From Candidatus Woesebacteria bacterium RIFCSPLOWO2_01_FULL_39_61 (GTDB lineage: Bacteria > Patescibacteriota > Microgenomatia > UBA8517), in contig MGHI01000039.1 in NCBI GenBank assembly GCA_001793155.1, positions 1,119-65,118 of the forward strand: 64,000 nucleotides of DNA, in the 5' to 3' direction. A program made the position numbers and the translations under genes. The notes under the pieces were generated by a model. That model saw only the letters and a list, made by a program, of their open reading frames with translations. It was not told the DNA's origin and did no database searches. Below, in pieces: positions 8,543 to 34,070 of the stretch; position 1 is the stretch's first letter, and the number at the start of each line of letters is the position of its first letter.

Positions 8543-9619
8543 ATGGCACTTTTTAGTAAGAAAAATAAAGAAGATGAATATGAGGATGAAGAGGAGTTGG
8601 TCCCAAGGAGAAAATCTTTGAGAAACAGGGATTTTAAAGATTTAAAACCCGAAAACCGCAAGAAGAGAAAAGAACCTCCGAAACCGTGGGGAAAAACCGA
8701 AAGATTATTGGTGCTACTAGTTTTAATATTAACAGCCGGAACGTCTTCCTTTTTAGCCTTGCAAAGTAGGGGCTGGAAGCTGCCGGGACTTCCCAGGCTT
8801 AAGATTCCATCCATATCTATTCCCTTTTTAGGAGAAAAAACAATTATTATCGAGGGTGACAAAAAAAATCAGGGGATGAAAGAAAAAGCAACCGTTGCCT
8901 TTAAAAGTATGACAAAGGAACTTTCGGGAGTATATGGCCTTTACGTATTGAGGTTAGACGATGGATCAAATTATGGTGTTAACGAAAATGAGATTTTCCA
9001 AGCAGCCTCGCTTATCAAACTACCGGTAATATTTGCCATGTATAAGGAGGCGGAAGGAGGAAATATAGACCTGGATAACAAATACCGATTGAAAAGAACC
9101 GATAAGGTAGCGGGTTCGGGGAGCTTATATCAAAAATCCGAAGGGTATCTTATCACCTATAGAGAAATGGTGAGGCTAATGGGTAAACAGTCCGATAACA
9201 CAGCCTTTAATATTCTGGTAAAGCTTTTAGGTAAGGACAAAATTGAAAGTGTAATCAAAGAACTGGGAATGATCCAGACATCCTTAGATAAAAACGAGAC
9301 AACTCCGGAAGATGTTGGTATCTTTTTTGACAGACTCTATAACGGAAATCTGATTTCAGACGCTTCTACAAATGAAATCTTAGAAGATTTAACGGATACA
9401 ATATATGAGGATTGGCTTGTGGCGGGAATCCCAGGGGTGATCAGAGTTGCACACAAATACGGTCGTGAACTTCATATTGTTAATGACGCCGGAATTATTT
9501 TAAGCGATAAGCCATTTGTATTAGTAATTATGAGTAAGGGGATTGTTGAAAAAGAAGCAGATGAAATTTTCCCAGTAATTACACGAGCTGTTTACGAAAT
9601 TGAGACCGGCGGATTTTAA
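8543..9619 (+). CDS. membrane-anchored class A beta-lactamase/PBP-like serine hydrolase
   Basis: Charged N-terminus plus TM; SxxK (ASLIK), SDN (QSDNT) and KYG motifs. Confidence 0.55.
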   Translation: MALFSKKNKEDEYEDEEELVPRRKSLRNRDFKDLKPENRKKRKEPPKPWGKTERLLVLLVLILTAGTSSFLALQSRGWKLPGLPRLKIPSISIPFLGEKTIIIEGDKKNQGMKEKATVAFKSMTKELSGVYGLYVLRLDDGSNYGVNENEIFQAASLIKLPVIFAMYKEAEGGNIDLDNKYRLKRTDKVAGSGSLYQKSEGYLITYREMVRLMGKQSDNTAFNILVKLLGKDKIESVIKELGMIQTSLDKNETTPEDVGIFFDRLYNGNLISDASTNEILEDLTDTIYEDWLVAGIPGVIRVAHKYGRELHIVNDAGIILSDKPFVLVIMSKGIVEKEADEIFPVITRAVYEIETGGF

Positions 9620-12375
9620 TTGTCAAACAAAAACTTCCTCTTTTTGGGTTTTGGCTGGTCAAAAAAATGATACTGGATTTCCGGTTGATTATTTTTAACT
9701 TCTTCAGTAGGTTTGTTTTCTTCATCTTTTTTAAACCATTCAGGTGAACAAGCTTTTTGAGGAGCGTTTTCTTTGAGAAACCATTCGAGTCTGGTTGGGC
9801 ATCCATTACAAGAAAGAGTTCCCGTAATTGTGCAAATGGGAACTTGAACCAAATCTTCAGGAACGGTCCAGTCGTGATTTTCTTCAGTTTGTAATAAAGA
9901 ACTCATGATTTTATTAAATATCGGGGAAGCCCCTGTCACTCCAGATGCTATCCGGGCCATTTCTGAGTTATCGTTATTTCCGACCCAGGTAGCAACCAGG
10001 TATGTTTGGTTATATCCCAGTGTTAAATTGTCTCTAAGATTATTGCTTGTACCGGTTTTGACTGCAACTTCTTTATGATTCGGTATTACCAGGAGCGAGT
10101 TTGTTCCGAAGGCTGGCGTTCGAGCATTATTATCCTTAAGGATGTCCGTAATAATGTACGCGACCCTGGGATCGATAACCTTATTCCCGTCACACTTACT
10201 CGTTTCCTCAGAATTTGTACTTCCAGACGATGACGCATACGTTATGGCGATAATAGAAGCTTCACCTCTCCCGCAGAAATTTTCTTCTAAAACTTTGCCT
10301 TTATTATTTGTTATTTTAAGGATGTATTTTTCTTCCGGCTTTTTTCCGTAGTTAGCGATGGTTGCGTAAGCATAAGCCAAATCCAGCAGTTTCACTTCAC
10401 CGCCACCCAGAGTTAATGACAAACCGTAATTATCCGGATTATTCCAGGTTGTAATACCCATTTTTTGCCCCATTTCAATCATATTTTTTACACCGTATGA
10501 ATTTAATACTTTTACTGCAGGGACGTTTCTGGACTCTGCAAATGCGCTTCGCAGTGTCAAATTTCCCCGAAAACCTCCTTCATAATTTTTGGGAGTATAG
10601 GGAGGAAGACCGGGTATAAGGAAGGTAACGGGAGTATCCGGGATAATTGTTGCGGCGGTGTAACCATTTGAGAGTGCGTATGCATAGTTAACTATCTTAA
10701 TCGAGGACCCCGGTTGCCTTAAGGAAGTTGTTACGTTTACGTTACCGTCATTTTGAGTATCAAAATAATCTTTGGAACCTACCATTGCCAGAACTTCACC
10801 TGTTGCTGGAGAGATTACCACTGCTGCGCCGTTTCTAACATTTAATTTTGCGAGTTTATCAACTTCTTCTTTGACAACGGTTTCAGCGAGAATTTGAATG
10901 TTATAATCGAGTGTTGTAACTACATTTAATCCTCCTTTTTCAACCAACTCCTTGCCGTATGTTTCTTCCAGAAGTTCTCGGACAAACATTACAAAATGGG
11001 AAGCTTTAATGTCGGTTTTATTTTCGGCAAAAATAGGAACTTCCTTTTGGGTTTCTTCTTTCTGACTTTGTGTAATGAAACCGTTTGTATGCATGAGGTT
11101 TAAGACCTCATTTTTTCTGTCGATTGCGGCTTGAGGATTTGGCCCGAAGGGTGAATACTGGGTCGGACTTTTTGGAAGTCCTGCAAGTATCGCCGCTTCG
11201 TTAAGAGTCAGAGAACCTACATCTTTATTGAAATACGTTCTTGCCGCCTCCTCGATTCCGTACGCCGTACCGCCGTAAGAAACCTCGTTTAGGTACATTT
11301 CTAATATTTCATTTTTTGAATAAGTCATTTCAACAATTACGGCCAACGTAATCTCTCTTAATTTTCTGATCAGAGTTTTTTCAGAAGAGAGGAGCGCGTT
11401 TTTTACCAGTTGTTGGGTAATTGTTGAGCCTCCGGTGAGTTCTCCTTGGCGCCAATTTTTAAGAGCGGCCCGGGTAATTCCCCGTATGGAAAAACCGGGG
11501 TGCGAGTAAAACTCTGCGTCTTCAATAGCTAAAGTGGCCAGTCTTACATGAAGCGGTATGGAATTAAGTTCTACCGGCGTTCTATTCTTATCATCGTATA
11601 TAGTGTAAAGAAGTATGCCGTTTCTGTCATATATTTTGGTAGAGACGTCAACATTTCTTTTAGTAAGCTCTTGCGCAGTGGGTAAATCTCTGAGTATAAA
11701 CCTCCAGAATAAAAATCCCGACAAAATAGTTAAAAGAACTGTTATTAGAAAACTAAAAAGGATTATTTTAAGAAGAGCTAATTTTGTTATTCTTACCTTA
11801 ACTTTAGTCTTTGGTTTGGTTAAAAAGATAGGAATTAATCGCAGGCGGACTTTTAAAAGGTTTATAGACTTTTCTGTATATAGGTAAGAGCGTTTAGAAA
11901 GATTTGCCGTCTGTTTAATTAAGACAAAAACTTTGGTAGTTTTTAATAAAAGCCTTTGGCCGAAATTCTTTGAGCTTATTGATACTTTTAAAAGAAAACC
12001 TTTAAGTAGAGTAATTAATTGCGGGGAAGCTTTAAAGATATCGCCTTGTTTTTTGAGTGATAATTTTTTTTCAAAAAAGAATCTGGTTTTTTTTAAGCTC
12101 GAATATATTCGCGCCAAATATTTTTTATATGAAGATATTTTCTTAGATGCTGAATTAAAAAAAGAATTAAATATAAAGGTTACGGTGCCGAACAGTCTCT
12201 TGATGAAGTATCCTGTAGCATGTAAGCCGAGAATTACGGCAAGAAATATATAAGTTAAGACGGTAAAAAAAGGCTTTCCAATAAGAGCAAGCAGCCTGAG
12301 AGCGAATTTTAGGCTGTTTTTTACTTTCGTTGGGGCAAGGTTAACATCTGGTTTTTGATTTGGTAGTTTAACCAC
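9616..12375 (-). CDS. class A penicillin-binding protein (PBP1A-type transglycosylase/transpeptidase) with a lysine-rich N-terminal extension
   Basis: GT51 motifs (EDAEFYSHPGF, GGSTITQQLVKN, RKLRE) and TPase motifs (SSIK, SRN, KTGTSN). Confidence 0.85.
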   Translation of the reverse strand: MVKLPNQKPDVNLAPTKVKNSLKFALRLLALIGKPFFTVLTYIFLAVILGLHATGYFIKRLFGTVTFIFNSFFNSASKKISSYKKYLARIYSSLKKTRFFFEKKLSLKKQGDIFKASPQLITLLKGFLLKVSISSKNFGQRLLLKTTKVFVLIKQTANLSKRSYLYTEKSINLLKVRLRLIPIFLTKPKTKVKVRITKLALLKIILFSFLITVLLTILSGFLFWRFILRDLPTAQELTKRNVDVSTKIYDRNGILLYTIYDDKNRTPVELNSIPLHVRLATLAIEDAEFYSHPGFSIRGITRAALKNWRQGELTGGSTITQQLVKNALLSSEKTLIRKLREITLAVIVEMTYSKNEILEMYLNEVSYGGTAYGIEEAARTYFNKDVGSLTLNEAAILAGLPKSPTQYSPFGPNPQAAIDRKNEVLNLMHTNGFITQSQKEETQKEVPIFAENKTDIKASHFVMFVRELLEETYGKELVEKGGLNVVTTLDYNIQILAETVVKEEVDKLAKLNVRNGAAVVISPATGEVLAMVGSKDYFDTQNDGNVNVTTSLRQPGSSIKIVNYAYALSNGYTAATIIPDTPVTFLIPGLPPYTPKNYEGGFRGNLTLRSAFAESRNVPAVKVLNSYGVKNMIEMGQKMGITTWNNPDNYGLSLTLGGGEVKLLDLAYAYATIANYGKKPEEKYILKITNNKGKVLEENFCGRGEASIIAITYASSSGSTNSEETSKCDGNKVIDPRVAYIITDILKDNNARTPAFGTNSLLVIPNHKEVAVKTGTSNNLRDNLTLGYNQTYLVATWVGNNDNSEMARIASGVTGASPIFNKIMSSLLQTEENHDWTVPEDLVQVPICTITGTLSCNGCPTRLEWFLKENAPQKACSPEWFKKDEENKPTEEVKNNQPEIQYHFFDQPKPKKRKFLFDN

Positions 12376-27786: not shown

Positions 27787-28647
27787 ATGGCAAAAATCGG
27801 AGTCATTGGCTGGGGTTATGTCGGGGCAGCTACCGGTAAAGGATTTTTGAAGAATAAAAAAAACAAGGTTTATTGGTACGATAAATACAAAAAAAGCCCT
27901 TATACCTTCGAGGAAGTATTAAATAGTTCCGAGTTCATTTTTGTTTGTCTTCCGACTCCGATGCTGCGTGACTATTCGGGCATGGATATGAGTGTTGTAA
28001 AAGAGGTTGTCCACAAAATTGCCAAAGGACTGGAACATTCAAATAAGGTAGTAATTATTAAATCTACCGTTTTGCCGGGAACTACTCTGAGTTTTTCAAA
28101 AAAATTTCCAAGAGTACACTTTGCAATGAATCCTGAATTTCTAACCCAGGAGCATGCCAACGAAGACTTTTTAAATCCCTCAAGGACGATAATTGGAGTA
28201 AATGATAAGAGGGTAGGTGAACGAATAAAAAAGCTTTATAAGAGTATTTTACCGGGTGGTCGGAAATATTTTATTACTGATTTCACATCCGCAGAGCTTG
28301 CAAAATATATGAGCAATTTGGTTTTAGCTTCCAAAGTCCTTCTAGCTAACGAATTTTATTTTTTAGCCAAAAAAATCGGAGCCAGATACGACCAAGTTAG
28401 ACAAATGGTTGAAGCTGACCACCGGATTGGTACACATCTGAAAACACCAGGTCCAGATGGGGATTTTGGGTTCGGAGGAGCTTGTTTTCCAAAAGACATG
28501 CTCGGACTTTTAGCATTTGCTAAGAAAAAAGGAGTTGATGTGTCAGCTCTTGATGCTATTTGGAAAAAGAATTTAAAGATAAGAAAGCAGCGGGATTGGG
28601 AAAAAATGGACAATGCCTTTGGCCGTGGAGCTTCAAAAAAGAATTAG
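27787..28647 (+). CDS. UDP-glucose/GDP-mannose dehydrogenase family protein (apparently lacks the C-terminal UDP-binding domain)
   Basis: N-terminal Rossmann loop (IGVIGWGYVG) and catalytic GFGGACFPKD motif; only 287 aa. Confidence 0.55.
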   Translation: MAKIGVIGWGYVGAATGKGFLKNKKNKVYWYDKYKKSPYTFEEVLNSSEFIFVCLPTPMLRDYSGMDMSVVKEVVHKIAKGLEHSNKVVIIKSTVLPGTTLSFSKKFPRVHFAMNPEFLTQEHANEDFLNPSRTIIGVNDKRVGERIKKLYKSILPGGRKYFITDFTSAELAKYMSNLVLASKVLLANEFYFLAKKIGARYDQVRQMVEADHRIGTHLKTPGPDGDFGFGGACFPKDMLGLLAFAKKKGVDVSALDAIWKKNLKIRKQRDWEKMDNAFGRGASKKN

Positions 28648-28703
28648 TTCAGCTTTCAATCTTAGTATTTTAGCTTCATGTTCTGATATAATAAATCCAC
28701 TTT

Positions 28704-28776
28704 GGATGCGTAGCTCAATGGTTAGAGCACCAACCTTATAAGTTGGGGGTTCCTGGTTCGAGCCCAGGCGCATCCA
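28704..28776 (+). tRNA. tRNA-Ile with anticodon TAT (UAU)
   Basis: Hand-folded cloverleaf: 7-bp acceptor GGATGCG/CGCATCC, D-arm TAGCTCAATGGTTAGAGC (Ile-like), anticodon stem CCAAC/GTTGG, loop CTTATAA, T-loop TTCGAGC, discriminator A. Confidence 0.75.
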
Positions 28777-28794
28777 CTTTACTTTCAATCTTAA

Positions 28795-29517
28795 ATGAAG
28801 AAACTCCTAGACATATCAAAACTTACACCCAAAAAACTTCACTTACTGGGCAGTAACGCCAGAGAAAAAGATAATCACCTAGGTGCGTTACAATACTTAG
28901 ACCACGCCATTATCGGTTATCAGAGAGAGAATAATTATGAGGGGATAGTAGATGCTTTAAAGGACAGAACCCTAACCTGGAAACGTTTCTTTTTGTTGAC
29001 GCAGGACAGGGTATTCGCAATTTTGGCCAGGAAGGATGCTGAAACAATGCTTGAAATCACAAAAGAAAAAGATTTAAAAAATAAGTACTCAACGTCATAT
29101 TTTAGATTGGGAGAAGTGAGTATGCTTTTTGAAAATTATCAGGATGCTATAAAAAACTATAAAAAGGCTTTAGAAGTTTACGAAGGGAGTTTGGCTGAGA
29201 AAGGGGACTTTCGCTATCATTTGGGAGAAGCAGTTTACCGCAATGGCAAAAAGAAACAAGGTAAAGAAGTTATGCTTGAGGGATTAAATGAGATAAGAAA
29301 GGGCGCTAAAAAAGTTCCTAACTTTCTTATTCATGTTTGGGAATCTGGGTGTCATTTGAGGCTTGCCCGGCTTTTAAGAGTAGACGAACCTAAGGAAGCT
29401 CAAAAATATTTAGAGTTAGCCAAGAAAATAATAAACGATGATGAGAAGTTAGTTATTAGGAAAAGACAATTAAATGAGGTGGAGAAGTCCTTTTTGGAAA
29501 GTAAAAAGAGTTTTTAA
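28795..29517 (+). CDS. hypothetical helical-repeat (TPR-like) protein
   Basis: 240 aa. Confidence 0.4.
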   Translation: MKKLLDISKLTPKKLHLLGSNAREKDNHLGALQYLDHAIIGYQRENNYEGIVDALKDRTLTWKRFFLLTQDRVFAILARKDAETMLEITKEKDLKNKYSTSYFRLGEVSMLFENYQDAIKNYKKALEVYEGSLAEKGDFRYHLGEAVYRNGKKKQGKEVMLEGLNEIRKGAKKVPNFLIHVWESGCHLRLARLLRVDEPKEAQKYLELAKKIINDDEKLVIRKRQLNEVEKSFLESKKSF

Positions 29518-30377
29518 AGCTCTGCAAGAATCTGTTTTTTGCCAGGTTCTTTGACTTCGGCGAGTTCCAAATACCGTTCGGTTGTCGAAAGTCTTTTATG
29601 TCCGACAACCTGAGATAGAAGTACCAGATCAATTCCGCTTTTAAGATTTTCAACAATAAAGGTGGTTCTTAAATCGTTTACAGAATAAGCGGAAATTTCA
29701 GATTTATGCATATAGCGGTCGATTGCCGCACGAATATTCCTTACTGCCAAGGGCTTTCCGTTTTTACTTACAAAAATGTAAGGAGAATCTGTTTCAGGTC
29801 TGAGCTTTAGGTATTCATCGAGGGCTTCTTTGGCGGGTTTATTAAGTGGAATTGTGCGTTCGGGTTGTGTTGCGTAAGACTGAATCTTGACCTCTGTGTC
29901 TTTCAGATCCTCTTGCTTCAGATTCGCCACTTCGGAGATTCGTAATCCTGTTTGTAAGATGAGTTCAATTACCGCAGCAATTCTTAAATCGTCCCGGACA
30001 ACGTCACGAAGTGCCCTGTATTCCATGGGAGAGAGGAATTTCGGCATGGCAGCAGTAATTTTGGGATGAGCGACGTCTTCCGACGGATTAGATGAGAGTA
30101 TTTTCTCGGTTATAAGATAGCGGAAGAATGTTTTTACGGCATTTAGCTTCCTGGAAACTGATTTAGCCGTGTATTTTTGGCTGAGCAGGGTGTCGCGAAA
30201 AGCTTCAATATCCTCCTGTAAGATTTGATCAGCTGTTGCCTTGTTTCTTTTAACCAAAAACTCCAACAGTTGTTCGAGATCGGCTCGATAAGCAAGAATT
30301 GTTGATGGTGATCGACCCTTTGTTTCTAAATGTCCGATAAATTTAGGCAGTAAGTCTTTCAGAACTTCTTGTGTCAT
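29514..30377 (-). CDS. tyrosine recombinase (XerC/XerD family)
   Basis: C-terminal R..H..R..Y catalytic region (LRTTFI...LLSQVVGHKRLSTTERY) and an N-terminal core-binding domain. Confidence 0.75.
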   Translation of the reverse strand: MTQEVLKDLLPKFIGHLETKGRSPSTILAYRADLEQLLEFLVKRNKATADQILQEDIEAFRDTLLSQKYTAKSVSRKLNAVKTFFRYLITEKILSSNPSEDVAHPKITAAMPKFLSPMEYRALRDVVRDDLRIAAVIELILQTGLRISEVANLKQEDLKDTEVKIQSYATQPERTIPLNKPAKEALDEYLKLRPETDSPYIFVSKNGKPLAVRNIRAAIDRYMHKSEISAYSVNDLRTTFIVENLKSGIDLVLLSQVVGHKRLSTTERYLELAEVKEPGKKQILAEL

Positions 30378-30541
30378 AATGTATGCTTGAATTATACGAT
30401 ATAAAAATTTAAACCTGTTTTTCAGAGGTAGAAGACTCTACTTCTTAAGGCTAATGATGATATGATAACATAGTTTTTTAAAAAAGGTCAACACTTTTGT
30501 TATACATAGGTATATTTTGATACGTTATTGAGATAATTTAA

Positions 30542-30931
30542 ATGCGAAATCTTTTGGTAAAAGTTCTGCACAAATTCATAAGGCTCAAATCTCTATTAAT
30601 AATCTTTCCGGCTATTTTGCTAATGATATCTCTGACAAAAAGCATAGAAAAAGTCAGGCAAGCGAATTTACAGGTTAAGGAGAAAGAGGAAATGCTAAAT
30701 AAAGTTGTTGATGAGAATAAGGTACTTGAGGCGAGATTAAGAGAGGCAAGGGATGATATTTATATAGAAAAACAATTGAGGGATAAATTAGGGTATGCCA
30801 AAGAAGGAGAAATTGTTGTTATCCTGCCCGAGGATGATGTCTTAAGGAAACTTGCACCGGAAGAAAAGAAAGAAGAAGAGACTCTTCCCGATCCTAATTG
30901 GAAAAAGTGGATGAAAGTATTTGATTTGTAA
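30542..30931 (+). CDS. FtsB/DivIC-like septum formation initiator
   Basis: N-terminal TM, coiled coil, conserved IEKQLRDKLGYAKEGEIV segment. Confidence 0.6.
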   Translation: MRNLLVKVLHKFIRLKSLLIIFPAILLMISLTKSIEKVRQANLQVKEKEEMLNKVVDENKVLEARLREARDDIYIEKQLRDKLGYAKEGEIVVILPEDDVLRKLAPEEKKEEETLPDPNWKKWMKVFDL

Positions 30932-30984
30932 TATAATACCTTCATTGCCTATTCCTAAGTAAAAATAGGAAATGTTTATAGCTT

Positions 30985-31014
30985 AAATCTGCCTTTGGGC
31001 AGATTTCTTGGTTT
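30985..31014 (+). terminator. rho-independent terminator (aaatctgcc-tttg-ggcagattt followed by a T-rich tail)
   Basis: 9-bp stem, 4-nt loop, followed by cttggttt. Confidence 0.55.
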
Positions 31015-31102
31015 AAGAAAAGTAAGCCAATTTTTGCGGCATACTAAACTTTAGCCAAGGATCGAGCACCTTAACAAATTCAGGAAAAAGAAAGGGAAAA
31101 AG

Positions 31103-31270
31103 TATGGCAGAGAAATGCAGCGAGTGTGGCAAAAAGACCCAAAAGAAGTGCGATCATTGTGGTAAACCATGTTGCAGCGATCATGGTATCAGAGTTTATC
31201 TAGGGAATACCCACTTCTGGGTTCACAGAGACTGTTGTAAAGAGGCGATGGATGTCCTGAAAGAGAACTA
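31103..31270 (+). CDS. 55-aa zinc-ribbon mini-protein (8 Cys)
   Basis: Not in the ORF track because it is under 60 aa. Translation MAEKCSECGKKTQKKCDHCGKPCCSDHGIRVYLGNTHFWVHRDCCKEAMDVLKEN. Purine-rich stretch before the ATG. Confidence 0.45.
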
Positions 31271-31301
31271 AGATTCTTAAAAAGAAGAAAGGAAGGTCGA
31301 A

Positions 31302-32321
31302 GTGGATACGCCTTGGTATGACGATCCAGGAAAGATTATGAAAACTATTGTGGAAGGAGGTTTGAAAGGCCTAAACGAAGTTGCTCATGCACGTCATGAG
31401 GCTCACTACGATCGGGGCGAAAGGCTCAATGACTACATTATTGAGGGATCCTGGTATACAGACTCTTGCGGTAACTGGGGAAAGCTCCAGTGGCCAAAAG
31501 GTCGTCCAGACCTTGCTTTTATGCTTGTTCTGACACCAGCAGGGTATAACGAATTTTGCGTTGTAACAGGACTACCGACTAATTGGTCTGCTTCAATGGC
31601 TTGGGAACTTCCTCCAGATGGGATGGTTTGCGACCTCTGTCTCGAGCCCTGGATGATTCAGGATGCACATACAGCTGTTGTAAACCGAACCTATGAAGAC
31701 ATTCCGCTTGAGCGGTTTGCTGGTAAATCACTTCGTGAAGTTGAGAAGCTTATAGGCGCAGAACTTTCTGCGACAGTGTTTCTTCAACCGGAATTGATGA
31801 TCCAGAACCCAGCTTATGTTGGACATGCCAACCACCCTGTTTTCGAGGATGTTGTTGTGCGCGATGAAGGGGAGCGCGGTTGGGTCTACAAGGCTAATAA
31901 GGACACATATCTGGTCCAGCCAGGCGATTCTGGGTATTTCAATGTCTGGACCTATCGGCATCCACTTTGCCAGGAAAATCGGCTCAGAAAACTTGAGACA
32001 AACTACTTCGAAGAAATTTTCACCAAATCTGGTTACAAACAGGTTGTTTTAAACGCTATTCCCAACGAATATTGCGGGGATCCTACTTGTTGCGGACCAT
32101 GGTTTTTGGTTCGGACGGAAGTAGGTAACTTCAAAGTCGGTTGGCGGAAACGCGTTATTAATCTTGAATGGGCCGGCAAGGGGGTTGGTCCCGAGCGTGA
32201 TTTAACCCACCTCTTTAAAGGTGAGTCGACGACTCTTGAGAGAGACTACGTCCATGCCCATGGTCGCGAAAAGCTCATCGATTATTTGCGACGTATTCGC
32301 AATTACCAACTTACACTCTAA
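31302..32321 (+). CDS. hypothetical Trp/Cys-rich 339-aa protein, no recognisable family
   Basis: GTG start; locally higher GC (about 47-50%) than the surroundings; conserved-looking Cys/His clusters. Confidence 0.5.
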   Translation: MDTPWYDDPGKIMKTIVEGGLKGLNEVAHARHEAHYDRGERLNDYIIEGSWYTDSCGNWGKLQWPKGRPDLAFMLVLTPAGYNEFCVVTGLPTNWSASMAWELPPDGMVCDLCLEPWMIQDAHTAVVNRTYEDIPLERFAGKSLREVEKLIGAELSATVFLQPELMIQNPAYVGHANHPVFEDVVVRDEGERGWVYKANKDTYLVQPGDSGYFNVWTYRHPLCQENRLRKLETNYFEEIFTKSGYKQVVLNAIPNEYCGDPTCCGPWFLVRTEVGNFKVGWRKRVINLEWAGKGVGPERDLTHLFKGESTTLERDYVHAHGREKLIDYLRRIRNYQLTL

Positions 32322-32456
32322 AAAATTTCTTGAATTTGACCACCCCCAGCATTGGGTATATGCAAGCTACATATATGCATAAACTTAATTCTGGGGGTTT
32401 TTTATTTACGCAGTCTGATAGCTTTAATATGATATAATTCAACCTGAACGTTTATA

Positions 32457-32526
32457 TGCGGGGTAGTGTACGGCTGCACGGAAGGCTCATAATCTTCCAG
32501 GCCGGGTCCGACTCCCGGCCCCGCAA
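32457..32526 (+). tRNA. atypical tRNA-like gene with a CAT anticodon (possible tRNA-Met/Ile2 or a pseudo-tRNA)
   Basis: Hand fold: acceptor starting U1:A72, 4-bp D-stem with a 6-nt loop containing GG, canonical anticodon loop CTCATAA, T-arm CCGGG/CCCGG with loop TCCGACT (C at position 55), discriminator A. Confidence 0.4.
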
Positions 32527-32531
32527 CACGA

Positions 32532-32603
32532 GCCAGCGTAGCTCAGCGGTAGAGCAGAGATTTCATAAGTCTAAGGTCACTGGTTCGATCCCAGTCGCTG
32601 GCA
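32532..32603 (+). tRNA. tRNA with anticodon CAT (elongator Met or Ile2)
   Basis: Acceptor GCCAGCG/CGCTGGC, D-arm GCTCAGCGGTAGAGC, anticodon loop TTCATAA, T-loop TTCGATC; lacks initiator features. Confidence 0.75.
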
Positions 32604-32671
32604 CTTATTTTATTAAACGTGCCCCATAATGTTCACTTTATCTTTAACTTGAGTTAAAATCTCCCTAATCC

Positions 32672-33049
32672 ATGACTCCGGAAAGATTTTCGAGTCTGAA
32701 AAGACTATTTTACGAGATAGCTTTGGTGCGTGGCAGGACAAGAGAAGATATGGTTAAAAACGCACTCGATTACCTAGTTAATGAAGGTAAATTAGATGGT
32801 TATGACGTCTCCGATGACTTGGATAGAAAAAAGCGGATTGATTTTTACCCCTTTTCGGGTTCAAAAAGGTATAAAATCCAAGTCAAAAGTTCTCCGCGCG
32901 GAGTTGAAGAAGCTTTAAGAAAGCACCCGTCAGATATTAAAGATAAAATTTTTATCGTACCTGATCTTGGTGAAACTCCCCAGGATTTAGCCGACAGGAT
33001 AATGAGTGAAATAAAAGCCGTTGAGGAAAGATTTAAACAAGGCGATTAA
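32672..33049 (+). CDS. hypothetical protein
   Basis: 125-aa ORF. Confidence 0.4.
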   Translation: MTPERFSSLKRLFYEIALVRGRTREDMVKNALDYLVNEGKLDGYDVSDDLDRKKRIDFYPFSGSKRYKIQVKSSPRGVEEALRKHPSDIKDKIFIVPDLGETPQDLADRIMSEIKAVEERFKQGD

Positions 33050-33080
33050 GTTTCAAAGATTAATTTGGTAAACTATTGAT

Positions 33081-34070
33081 ATGGTAAAAAAGAGAGTTTT
33101 GCAGGGAATGCGGCCTACAGGCCATCTTCACTTGGGTAATTACCTTGGCACAGCTAAAGGGATGCTTGCATTGCAAGAAGATCCCAACTATGAGACTTTT
33201 TATATGGTTGCAGATTTACACGGAATGACGACTCCATTTGATCCTAAAAAAATCATGCTTGAATCCAGAGAAGTTATCCTTGACTATTTATCTTGCGGCC
33301 TTGATCCCAAAAAATCTGCCTTATTTCTTCAATCTAGTCTAGCGGACTTACACGTTCAATTGGCTTATTATTTTTCAACCGTTGTAACTGTGGCAAGAAT
33401 GCAACACCTTCCAACTTATAAGGAGAAAGTAAAACAGTATCCTGAGAATGTGACCATGGCTCTTCTTAACTACCCTATTTTAATGGCGGCTGATATTTTG
33501 ATATACAAAGCAAGCATGGTACCGGTTGGAATGGACCAAGAGCCGCACATGGAGGTAACCAGAGAAATTGCAAGAAAGATGAATTTGCTCTACGGCTTGG
33601 GTTTCCCGGAACCTAGGAGCCTTGAGACAAAAAGTAGATACATACCTTCCTTAACTGGGGAAGGGAAGATGAGCAAATCCGTAGAGGGGAGTTATATCAA
33701 CTTAACGGATAATTTAGAAACGATAAAAGAACGCTTAGCAAAGGTACCAACAGATTCCGGCAAGGGTAATAAAATACCCGAAGGCGGTGGAGTTTATACT
33801 TTATTAACAATAGTGGAGCTATTTCAGGGATTAGAAAAAAGGACAAAATATGAGAAAGAGTATAAGCGATCGGGCATAAAGTATCAGGATCTGAAAAACG
33901 AATTAGCAGAAGCAATATTTAAAGACTTAGAACCTATCCAGAAGAAGAGACGAGAATTAGAAAAAGATAGGGCCTATATAGATAATGCACTTAAAGACGG
34001 AACCGAGAGAGCTAGAGCTGTAGCAAGTAAAACCGTAAAAGAAGTTAAGGAAAAAATGGGGTTAATTTAA
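33081..34070 (+). CDS. trpS: tryptophanyl-tRNA synthetase
   Basis: HIGH-type motif (GHLHLGNYLG) and KMSKS. Confidence 0.9.
   Translation: MVKKRVLQGMRPTGHLHLGNYLGTAKGMLALQEDPNYETFYMVADLHGMTTPFDPKKIMLESREVILDYLSCGLDPKKSALFLQSSLADLHVQLAYYFSTVVTVARMQHLPTYKEKVKQYPENVTMALLNYPILMAADILIYKASMVPVGMDQEPHMEVTREIARKMNLLYGLGFPEPRSLETKSRYIPSLTGEGKMSKSVEGSYINLTDNLETIKERLAKVPTDSGKGNKIPEGGGVYTLLTIVELFQGLEKRTKYEKEYKRSGIKYQDLKNELAEAIFKDLEPIQKKRRELEKDRAYIDNALKDGTERARAVASKTVKEVKEKMGLI

Follow-up and report, generated by a model that had tools for sequence, protein, structure and literature searches.

The segment considered here, 3.9 kb in length, extends from a tRNA-Ile(UAU) gene to two tandem tRNA-Met(CAU) genes of Candidatus Woesebacteria bacterium RIFCSPLOWO2_01_FULL_39_61 (contig MGHI01000039.1) and lies within a 64,000-nucleotide (nt) stretch of DNA, hereafter called the window. 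Found between the two sets of tRNA genes are a gene encoding a TPR-repeat protein (+), a convergent gene encoding an Xer-like tyrosine recombinase (xer, -), a gene encoding a DivIC/FtsB-type septum protein (divIC), and two adjacent open reading frames (ORFs) encoding proteins of 55 and 339 amino acids (aa), designated p55 and p339 (Table 1). A preliminary description of the window interpreted the recombinase, the tRNA boundaries and the locally elevated GC content as the signature of a small integrated element carrying a novel two-component module, conceivably a defence or toxin-like system. While all of the features listed in that description, among them a strong terminator behind the FtsB-like gene, are indeed recovered in place by ARAGORN, Rfam, Pfam and the ORF list, comparison with related genomes leads to a different reading of the segment. 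Specifically, it very probably belongs to the conserved chromosomal backbone of a small-genome lineage of the candidate phyla radiation (CPR)/Patescibacteria type, in which accessory genes turn over within three gaps beside tRNA genes, p339 having been gained in an ancestor of three species and the block containing p55 being confined to a single species.

Relatives of the locus were fetched using the tryptophanyl-tRNA synthetase gene (trpS) as an anchor, yielding 80 metagenomic loci at 60-82% identity, and backbone order was scored over the fetched loci by means of a combined tblastn and ARAGORN matrix. One collinear order is common to 33 of the 80 trpS-anchored loci: TrwB-like ATPase – (UDP-glucose dehydrogenase) – tRNA-Ile(UAU) – xer(-) – divIC(+) – one or two tRNA-Met – trpS – tRNA-binding protein – ftsH – 5'-3' exonuclease. 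Within these backbone loci divIC always comes after xer, one or two CAU tRNA genes are located between divIC and trpS in nearly every case, and the position of tRNA-Ile(UAU) is the same in most. In L001, the closest relative, gene order equals that of the window from the ribonucleotide reductase gene to ftsH, both sets of tRNA genes included. Gene p339 is present in 0 of the 33 collinear contigs, while xer, divIC and the tRNA genes are present regardless; therefore, the latter are components of the backbone, and not the ends or the integrase of an element. Similarly, presence or absence of the segment as a whole is not observed among relatives: the frame is constant, and only the contents of three gaps differ.

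These comparisons bear directly on the possibility that the tRNA-to-tRNA segment is a mobile element equipped with its own tyrosine integrase and a two-gene defence or toxin-like module, an idea favored by the placement of a recombinase between tRNA genes, the raised local GC content, the phage relatives of p339, and the adjacency of the p55 and p339 ORFs between two terminators. In addition to the 33 contigs in which recombinase, divIC and tRNAs occur without the cargo, a search for the direct repeat of a tRNA 3' end expected of such an element found no att-like repeat within positions 28000-34000, where the sole tRNA-related repeat is a generic likeness between tRNA-Ile and tRNA-Met (70% over 57 nt). 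Furthermore, the p55/p339 pair is not kept in the two closest relatives or elsewhere, PADLOC gives no match, and the GC content of p339 at third codon positions (GC3) falls inside the host range. Taken together, these data render an integrated element exceedingly improbable. The locus does share with tRNA-targeted integrative elements and genomic islands the presence of accessory genes directly beside tRNAs that differ between related genomes, but it differs from them in having no element-borne integrase, no att duplication and no whole-segment presence/absence, and in that its cargo changes gene by gene in three separate gaps. What survives of the preliminary description, then, is a cargo that is acquired and novel, whereas the integrative element and the two-component system do not; the p339, p55, TPR and 125-aa cargo varies among relatives, but the tRNA-to-tRNA frame is always kept.

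The three variable gaps extend from tRNA-Ile to xer (gap A), from divIC to tRNA-Met (gap B), and from tRNA-Met to trpS (gap C). Over the backbone loci gap A ranges from 8 to approximately 1,600 nt, while in gap B divIC and tRNA-Met are only 2-57 nt apart in 14 loci, the largest distance elsewhere being 1.75 kb. In the window, gap A contains the TPR gene, gap B contains p55 and p339, and gap C contains a gene encoding a 125-aa protein. The TPR protein has a 25%-identical counterpart in L001 only and none in other backbone loci, while the 125-aa protein, which matches nothing in Pfam, NCBIfam, PHROGs or PADLOC, has an ortholog in L064 (69% identity) and is not found in L001 or other backbone loci. 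No hidden relatives of p339 were detected among the gap cargo of related genomes. All four genes placed in the gaps of the window (TPR, p55, p339 and 125-aa) are accessory and lineage-restricted, and these short tRNA-side gaps gain and lose unrelated accessory genes genome by genome. Elsewhere among the relatives, gap cargo as read from the sequences would comprise, among others, a PIN-like toxin accompanied by a small partner, an NYN/LabA-like gene, a cytidylate-kinase-like gene, a pair of conserved 227-228-aa helix-turn-helix proteins, and a TrpB-like gene located just upstream of trpS.

The recombinase itself behaves as a resident of the backbone. Its orthologs are 51-89% identical across the collinear loci (51-81% in the 33 trpS-anchored contigs), and the motifs TG[LM]RISE, NDLR and GH..Y are conserved in 37 sequences. 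As in XerC, XerD and XerA, a SAM-like N-domain precedes a Phage_integrase catalytic domain, and, like a housekeeping gene, xer is clade-wide and syntenic. The best NCBIfam matches are to XerC (166 bits, cut-off 335), XerA (157.5 bits, cut-off 220) and XerD (157 bits, cut-off 330), all of which lie under the equivalog cut-offs, the XerC score reaching about half of the value required. Arg I, Arg II, His III and the Tyr of the catalytic set are present. The HxxR box of tyrosine recombinases usually begins with His, but in this protein Asn replaces that residue (NDLR, residues 234-237), as it does in all 37 orthologs. Given scores under the cut-offs and the unusual Asn, the enzyme is best called Xer-like. 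No second tyrosine recombinase is encoded within the 64-kb window, and conservation of sequence and position suggests that this protein is the vertically inherited, housekeeping-type Xer-like enzyme of the lineage, not the integrase of an element.

Two further members of the backbone deserve mention. Counterparts of the 793-aa TrwB-like protein, among which those of L001 and L065 carry DUF8128, show 63-91% identity across related contigs, and because of this conservation the protein is not considered part of a conjugative element. Separately, the genes at the trpS position of L001 (9806-10795) and L064 (3117-4106), which like that of L065 match PF00579, encode products 33-35% identical to that of the window and 83% identical to each other, while the FtsH, Xer and TrwB-like proteins flanking trpS are 85-91% identical between the window and these two relatives. 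The window-type trpS is the version found in the 80 other loci at 60-82%. From these identities, the L001/L064 lineage seems to have exchanged its trpS, at the original position, for a distantly related form. Rfam searches across the region return tRNAs alone; sub-threshold matches to the 'Plastid-ycf2 5'UTR' (5' untranslated region) model on the minus strand at 28704-28777 and 32532-32604 were rejected as tRNA-shaped artefacts produced by tRNAs read backwards.

Table 1. Positions of features at the tRNA-bounded locus (window numbering unless a related locus is named).
Feature	Position	Strand	Evidence or remark
TrwB/VirD4-type coupling-protein ATPase-domain protein, 793 aa	25249-27630		backbone member
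tRNA-Ile(UAU)	28704-28777	+	ARAGORN; Rfam 72 bits
TPR-repeat protein, 240 aa	28795-29517	+	TPR_12 E=3e-8
Xer-like tyrosine recombinase, 287 aa	29514-30377	-	Phage_integrase PF00589 E=6e-28; SAM-like N-domain PF02899 E=5e-16
DivIC/FtsB-type septum protein, 129 aa	30542-30931	+	PF04977 E=1.5e-13, 50.8 bits vs cut-off 28.9
divIC intrinsic terminator hairpin	30985-31006	+	terminator scan; folding energy -14 kcal/mol, z -3.2
Conserved leader of the p339 unit	31007-31087	+	alignment of window, L001, L064
Invariant 24-nt block GAGCACCTTAACAAATTCAGGAAA at leader end	31064-31087	+	same three-species alignment
Species-specific block, ~200 nt, holding p55 together with an additional ribosome-binding site	31088-31301	+	not in L001/L064
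55-aa ORF (p55), eight Cys/four His	31104-31271	+	predicted mini zinc finger, orphan
p339, 339 aa, three modules	31302-32321	+	starts 30 nt past 55-aa ORF
p339 N-module, residues 1-125	31302-31676	+	
p339 C110-x2-C113 codons, first half of presumed zinc site	31629-31640	+	invariant in 75 diverse members
p339 middle module, residues 126-209	31677-31928	+	
p339 C-module, residues 210-339	31929-32318	+	
p339 H220-x2-C223 codons, second half of presumed zinc site	31959-31970	+	invariant in 75 members
p339 GWRKRVIN beta-hairpin codons	32139-32162	+	signature of phage-borne C-terminal core
Strong intrinsic terminator past p339, long hairpin and U-run	32342-32408	+	inverted repeat I3; folding energy -28.5 kcal/mol, z -4.7
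Two tandem tRNA-Met(CAU) genes	32457-32527, 32532-32604	+	ARAGORN, Rfam
125-aa protein, gap C cargo	32672-33049	+	no family match
Tryptophanyl-tRNA synthetase (trpS)	33081-34070	+	anchor for fetching related loci
Accessory gap gene, L079	172-902		
Accessory gap gene, L081	3775-4451		
Accessory gap gene, L094	5283-5945		
Accessory gap gene, L127	5035-6213		
Accessory gap gene, L131	5505-6191		
Accessory gap gene, L139	2719-3402		

At the divIC–tRNA-Met gap, p339 is found in three species only, namely that of the window, to which the Joint Genome Institute (JGI) contigs L065-L067 also belong (their DNA is identical to that of the window), and those represented by L001 and L064. JGI samples 3300002123, 3300002243 and 3300002118 contain the species of the window as well. 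The orthologs in L001 and L064 are 68-69% identical to the protein of the window, pairwise identities among the three species are 68-71%, and the flanks are the same. With respect to composition, local GC content is 0.46-0.49 compared with 0.40 for the window, and that of p339 is 0.475 compared with 0.398, in agreement with the local rise noted in the preliminary description. This excess, however, resides mainly at the first codon position (0.591; mean 0.475) and the second (0.397; mean 0.350) and so reflects mostly amino-acid composition: the GC3 of p339 is 0.435 (z = 1.6), the fourth highest among 61 genes with a host mean of 0.365, and that of the L001 ortholog is 0.363, equal to the host average. 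Because GC3 lies within the host range and intact orthologs exist in three species, the sequence data indicate that p339 is an old, maintained acquisition and not a recent arrival. Entry into gap B would most likely have taken place in the common ancestor of the three species, the gene then being kept intact.

Flanking signals point to independent transcription of p339, with a conserved leader at the 5' side of the unit. The unit is bracketed by the divIC terminator upstream, the hairpin of which is kept with compensating changes in L001 and L064, and by its own strong terminator downstream, where TTTTTTATTT comes after the hairpin. The 24-nt block GAGCACCTTAACAAATTCAGGAAA is identical among three species whose proteins are approximately 70% identical, and among 149 fetched loci it is found in the three p339-bearing species only. 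Neither an Rfam match nor a convincing sigma-70 promoter was obtained for the leader containing this block (30932-31087). For expression of the p339 unit, the block may act as promoter or operator, or as part of the 5'-UTR. In L001 (9030-9416) and L064 (1652-2041), a gene of approximately 128 aa that is not present in the window lies behind p339; its products are 58% identical between the two, the L064 copy overlaps the p339 stop codon by 4 nt, and a relative in L049 (5431-5871) is situated 4 kb from a p339 homolog. As a true partner of p339 this gene was rejected, being absent from the window and 4 kb distant in L049.

The arrangement of p55 and p339 was described at the outset as a two-gene unit, and the adjacency is real, the measured gap being 30 nt where 31 had been given. 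In L001 and L064, however, the leader passes straight into the p339 start, while in the window a block of approximately 200 nt (31088-31301) is interposed; this block would thus have been placed between leader and p339 start in this species only. The octamer AAGAAAGG, read from the sequence, is located at both ends of the block (31088-31095 and 31285-31292) and could represent insertion microhomology or duplication, or merely two purine-rich ribosome-binding sites. The 55-aa ORF was not found in L001, L064 and 60-odd other loci with p339 homologs, no small Cys-rich ORF recurs beside those homologs, and over 62 loci of the p339 family no neighbor is conserved except a promiscuous ABC ATPase family. 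Additionally, no p55 paralog exists in the 1.7 Mb of fetched DNA, and the single match among 5.8 billion proteins is a shortened call on identical DNA. A 33-aa JGI product (L065 6001-6100, equivalent to 31104-31203 of the window) was considered as a disrupted form of the ORF and dismissed as a gene-calling artefact, the DNA being identical. The proposed two-gene module is thereby contradicted by the absence of p55 beside some 60 p339 homologs, and the suggested defence or toxin-like role finds no counterpart in PADLOC (p339, p55, the 125-aa protein, the TPR protein and Xer all being without match) or in any toxin-antitoxin signal.

Despite its restricted distribution, p55 does not resemble a random reading frame. 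The eight cysteines reported in the preliminary description are present, arranged with histidines as C-x2-C-x7-C-x2-C-x3-CC-x2-H … H-x2-CC, and when the sequence was shuffled, none of the 1,334 resulting ORFs of 50-80 aa combined at least two CxxC motifs with at least six Cys; the Cys pattern is not due to chance. This spacing is similar to that of the HIT, MYND or AN1 cross-brace zinc fingers. Like those fingers, p55 combines paired Cys/His spacing with a beta-hairpin (residues 28-41) and a C-terminal helix (42-53), which follow the knuckles in a single-sequence AlphaFold model with a predicted local distance difference test (pLDDT) score of 84.5, but no Pfam model of these families matches it. 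Searches of Pfam, NCBIfam, PHROGs and PADLOC yielded no match for the ORF, the nearest models, DUF2321 at E = 0.054 and C5HCH at E = 0.17, both being sub-threshold. Its GC3 is 0.50, with a z of 3.0 that is based on 55 codons only.

It could be argued that p55 is no gene at all, its reading frame having arisen fortuitously where an insertion left a scar, and that the unit encodes p339 alone, since the ORF is short, is an orphan among billions of proteins and is missing from relatives. This is unlikely in view of the cross-brace-like arrangement of its eight Cys and its four His, which is unmatched among the shuffled ORFs, the purine-rich ribosome-binding site that the ORF possesses in its own right, and the confidence of the single-sequence model. 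Sequence and model together thus favor a species-restricted mini zinc finger, rather than one half of a conserved two-component system.

The 339-aa protein, by comparison, belongs to a large family. As first described, it is rich in Trp, Cys and His (z = 1.8, 1.5 and 2.3 relative to the proteins of the window) and has no recognized family, there being no match in Pfam, NCBIfam, PHROGs or PADLOC. While a word-indexed search returned 16 close relatives, an exhaustive profile search extended the family to 2,243 clusters (50% identity), including 545 with E <= 1e-30. Full-length members occur in metagenome-assembled genomes (MAGs) of the CPR groups Saccharibacteria, Paceibacterota, Komeilibacteria, Collierbacteria, CPR2 and Sungiibacteriota, and also in MAGs of DPANN and other archaea. 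Some of the contigs concerned measure approximately 860 kb and must be chromosomes. In other CPR chromosomes the homolog is a lone ORF amid housekeeping genes and outside of prophages, the neighbors, identified by reading their sequences, including RpoA-L17-L13-S9, L19 and RNase HII, L31 and RF1, Asp/Asn-tRNA synthetase, and TypA with transfer-messenger RNA (tmRNA).

Members of the family take three forms. Full forms span the entire profile; medium forms contain the N- and C-modules without residues ~130-215; and short forms consist of residues ~225/250-330 only. Residues R31, G57, C110, C113, H220, C223, Y257, W267 and G280 are invariant over 75 diverse members. The C-module carries the motifs IPNEY, PW, GWRKRVIN, DVTKG and IHAWG, and the signature of the core comprises IPNEY, PW, GWRKRVI, W290, T311, H318 and Y328. 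The GWRKRVIN hairpin is invariant in full-length and short phage forms, and its use as a search pattern identified 31 viral and 25 genome loci. The short core is encoded by cultured jumbo phages of Caulobacter (for example, gp250 of phage CcrSC), Xanthomonas and Erwinia and by Xylella phage Salvo (gp31), as well as by a 595-kb uncultured phage and by 31 IMG/VR contigs, the longest of which measures 619 kb, and a total of 801 stand-alone core proteins of ~105-130 aa was recorded. Phage copies of the core gene are embedded in stretches of small early, replication or recombination genes, with ERF, SSB or ParB-like genes close by in 48-kb phages. The family is large and unannotated, with a clear phage affinity.

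The patchy insertion of a single gene among close relatives raises the possibility that p339 is a free-standing selfish gene, comparable to a homing endonuclease, which moves between phages and small-genome prokaryotes and inserts itself into intergenic sites beside highly conserved genes (those for tRNA, tmRNA or ribosomal proteins, for instance). In its favor, p339 homologs occur alone amid core genes in other CPR genomes, are abundant in phages, jumbo phages included, and possess a presumed Cys/His metal site. Degraded copies are also on record: L056 carries a homolog split into two overlapping ORFs (9584-11049), and L059 (9362-10276) and L062 (9998-10195) retain fragments. Since these copies are split or fragmentary, a gene of this family seems to be dispensable in some lineages. 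Homologs in L039, L041, L043 and L047 lie 87-209 nt from a tRNA or tmRNA gene, such that 4 of 25 MAG loci, compared with 22 of 408 background genes, have one within 300 nt (Fisher p = 0.054), but the same is true of 0 of 31 viral contigs, and tRNA adjacency was set aside as a trait of the family, the statistic being marginal and post hoc. Moreover, no invariant acidic residue was found over 75 members and no recognizable nuclease domain or fold (HNH, GIY-YIG, LAGLIDADG or others), while p339 occupies one site in three species, has diverged to an extent like that of divIC, and shows host-like GC3. A selfish p339 is consequently improbable.

Alternatively, p339 could be a resident CPR/DPANN gene linked to translation or RNA, from which the short forms of phages were captured as fragments. 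The concentration of full-length forms in CPR and DPANN MAGs, the purifying conservation evident at many residues, and the frequency of translation genes among the neighbors (to the list above may be added tRNAs) all speak for such an origin. Translation genes are dense, however, and by our own estimate any four neighbors include one about half the time; the same locus is without p339 in the 33 related backbone contigs; here the gene is not operonic with its neighbors, terminators lying on either side; and the stand-alone core is far commoner in phage-like contigs. A resident origin is, on balance, distinctly unlikely, and acquisition of p339 as a phage-related accessory gene is preferred. In this respect p339 resembles phage early-region genes captured singly by hosts, in that its C-terminal core corresponds to a stand-alone phage gene and the cellular form is a lone gene with its own signals, but it differs from them in being three times longer, in its two extra modules and Cys/His site, and in having no recognizable prophage around it. 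It is an instance of a familiar class, that of phage-related accessory genes in chromosomal hot spots, with a family and fold that are undescribed in the libraries searched.

Structural analysis provides a confident model of p339. AlphaFold, supplied with a 14-sequence alignment, returned a pLDDT of 90.2 and a predicted template modelling score of 0.82. The structure prediction and Foldseek comparison proposed in the preliminary description did not disclose a relationship, as searches of the model against the PDB and BFVD gave nothing at E <= 0.001. The best matches are weak and concern non-catalytic alpha+beta binding folds, namely Med17, the double wing of MotA, and RWD/UBC-like and YjbR-like folds; for the C-terminal 'double wing' of MotA and for YjbR-like and RWD/UBC-like folds, identity with p339 is 3-17% and scores are weak, a resemblance that provides no evidence of homology. 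PDB sequence and profile searches were empty, Pfam matched none of 75 diverse homologs and none of 5 short forms, fusions were likewise not found in 10 long members, and no paper on the motif of the family came to light in the literature.

With respect to metal binding, four potential ligands (C110, C113, H220 and C223) are invariant in the 75 members, H220-x2-C223 being located at the start of the helix formed by residues 221-242. From this pattern we infer that the tetrad binds zinc. Zinc at this position would staple the N-module to the C-module; medium forms keep both halves of the site, C110-x2-C113 included, and short forms have neither half.

In the mechanism proposed, p339 would be a soluble protein of three modules, the C-module being a version of a domain of about 100 aa that belongs to phage early, replication or recombination regions. 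The core would serve as a binding module that acts through its basic, aromatic hairpin on a target that might be a nucleotide or a nucleic acid; because the host range of the core spans bacteria and archaea, this target would be common to both. Cellular p339 would accordingly represent a captured phage domain retained as an accessory factor in the interplay of phage and host. That p339 is a non-enzymatic, zinc-stabilized binding protein of phage origin, kept by the host as an accessory factor, is put forward tentatively as the most likely function, though one that is less probable than not. Rather doubtful, and still more speculative, is a wider version in which the GWRKRVIN core constitutes an undescribed fold and family, an early gene of diverse phages (from those of Caulobacter and Xanthomonas to those of CPR and DPANN hosts) directed at a target common to bacteria and archaea, which was captured by small-genome prokaryotes and extended into a three-module zinc protein acting on the side of the host, for example as a decoy or exclusion factor.

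Several considerations weigh against the reading of locus and protein given above. Firstly, gain of p339, as opposed to loss elsewhere, was judged by parsimony on contigs and not on a species tree, and related genomes without p339 at this site might hold a copy at another locus. Secondly, a further Xer gene may lie outside the 64-kb window. Thirdly, no family, fusion, literature or convincing structural match gives p339 a function; zinc binding is predicted from conservation, and strongly conserved T311, H318, Y257 and R282 could equally mark the active site of an enzyme. Finally, p339 as a whole is acidic (median isoelectric point 5.9), which is unusual for a protein that binds nucleic acid, only the C-module being near neutral or basic.

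A recombinase in the company of tRNA genes and odd GC content is often taken for a genomic island; in this lineage, the same combination is core chromosome, and only small tRNA-side gaps turn over, one gene at a time and without a visible integrase. While uncharacterized phage-related families are common and no unusual mechanism is indicated so far, p339 draws attention to a sizeable unnamed family, comprising 2,243 clusters in addition to the 801 stand-alone cores, with members in phages as well as in bacteria of the CPR and archaea of the DPANN group. Because cultured phages of Caulobacter, Xanthomonas and Xylella carry the core, its function is genetically testable despite the lack of a culture of the CPR host.

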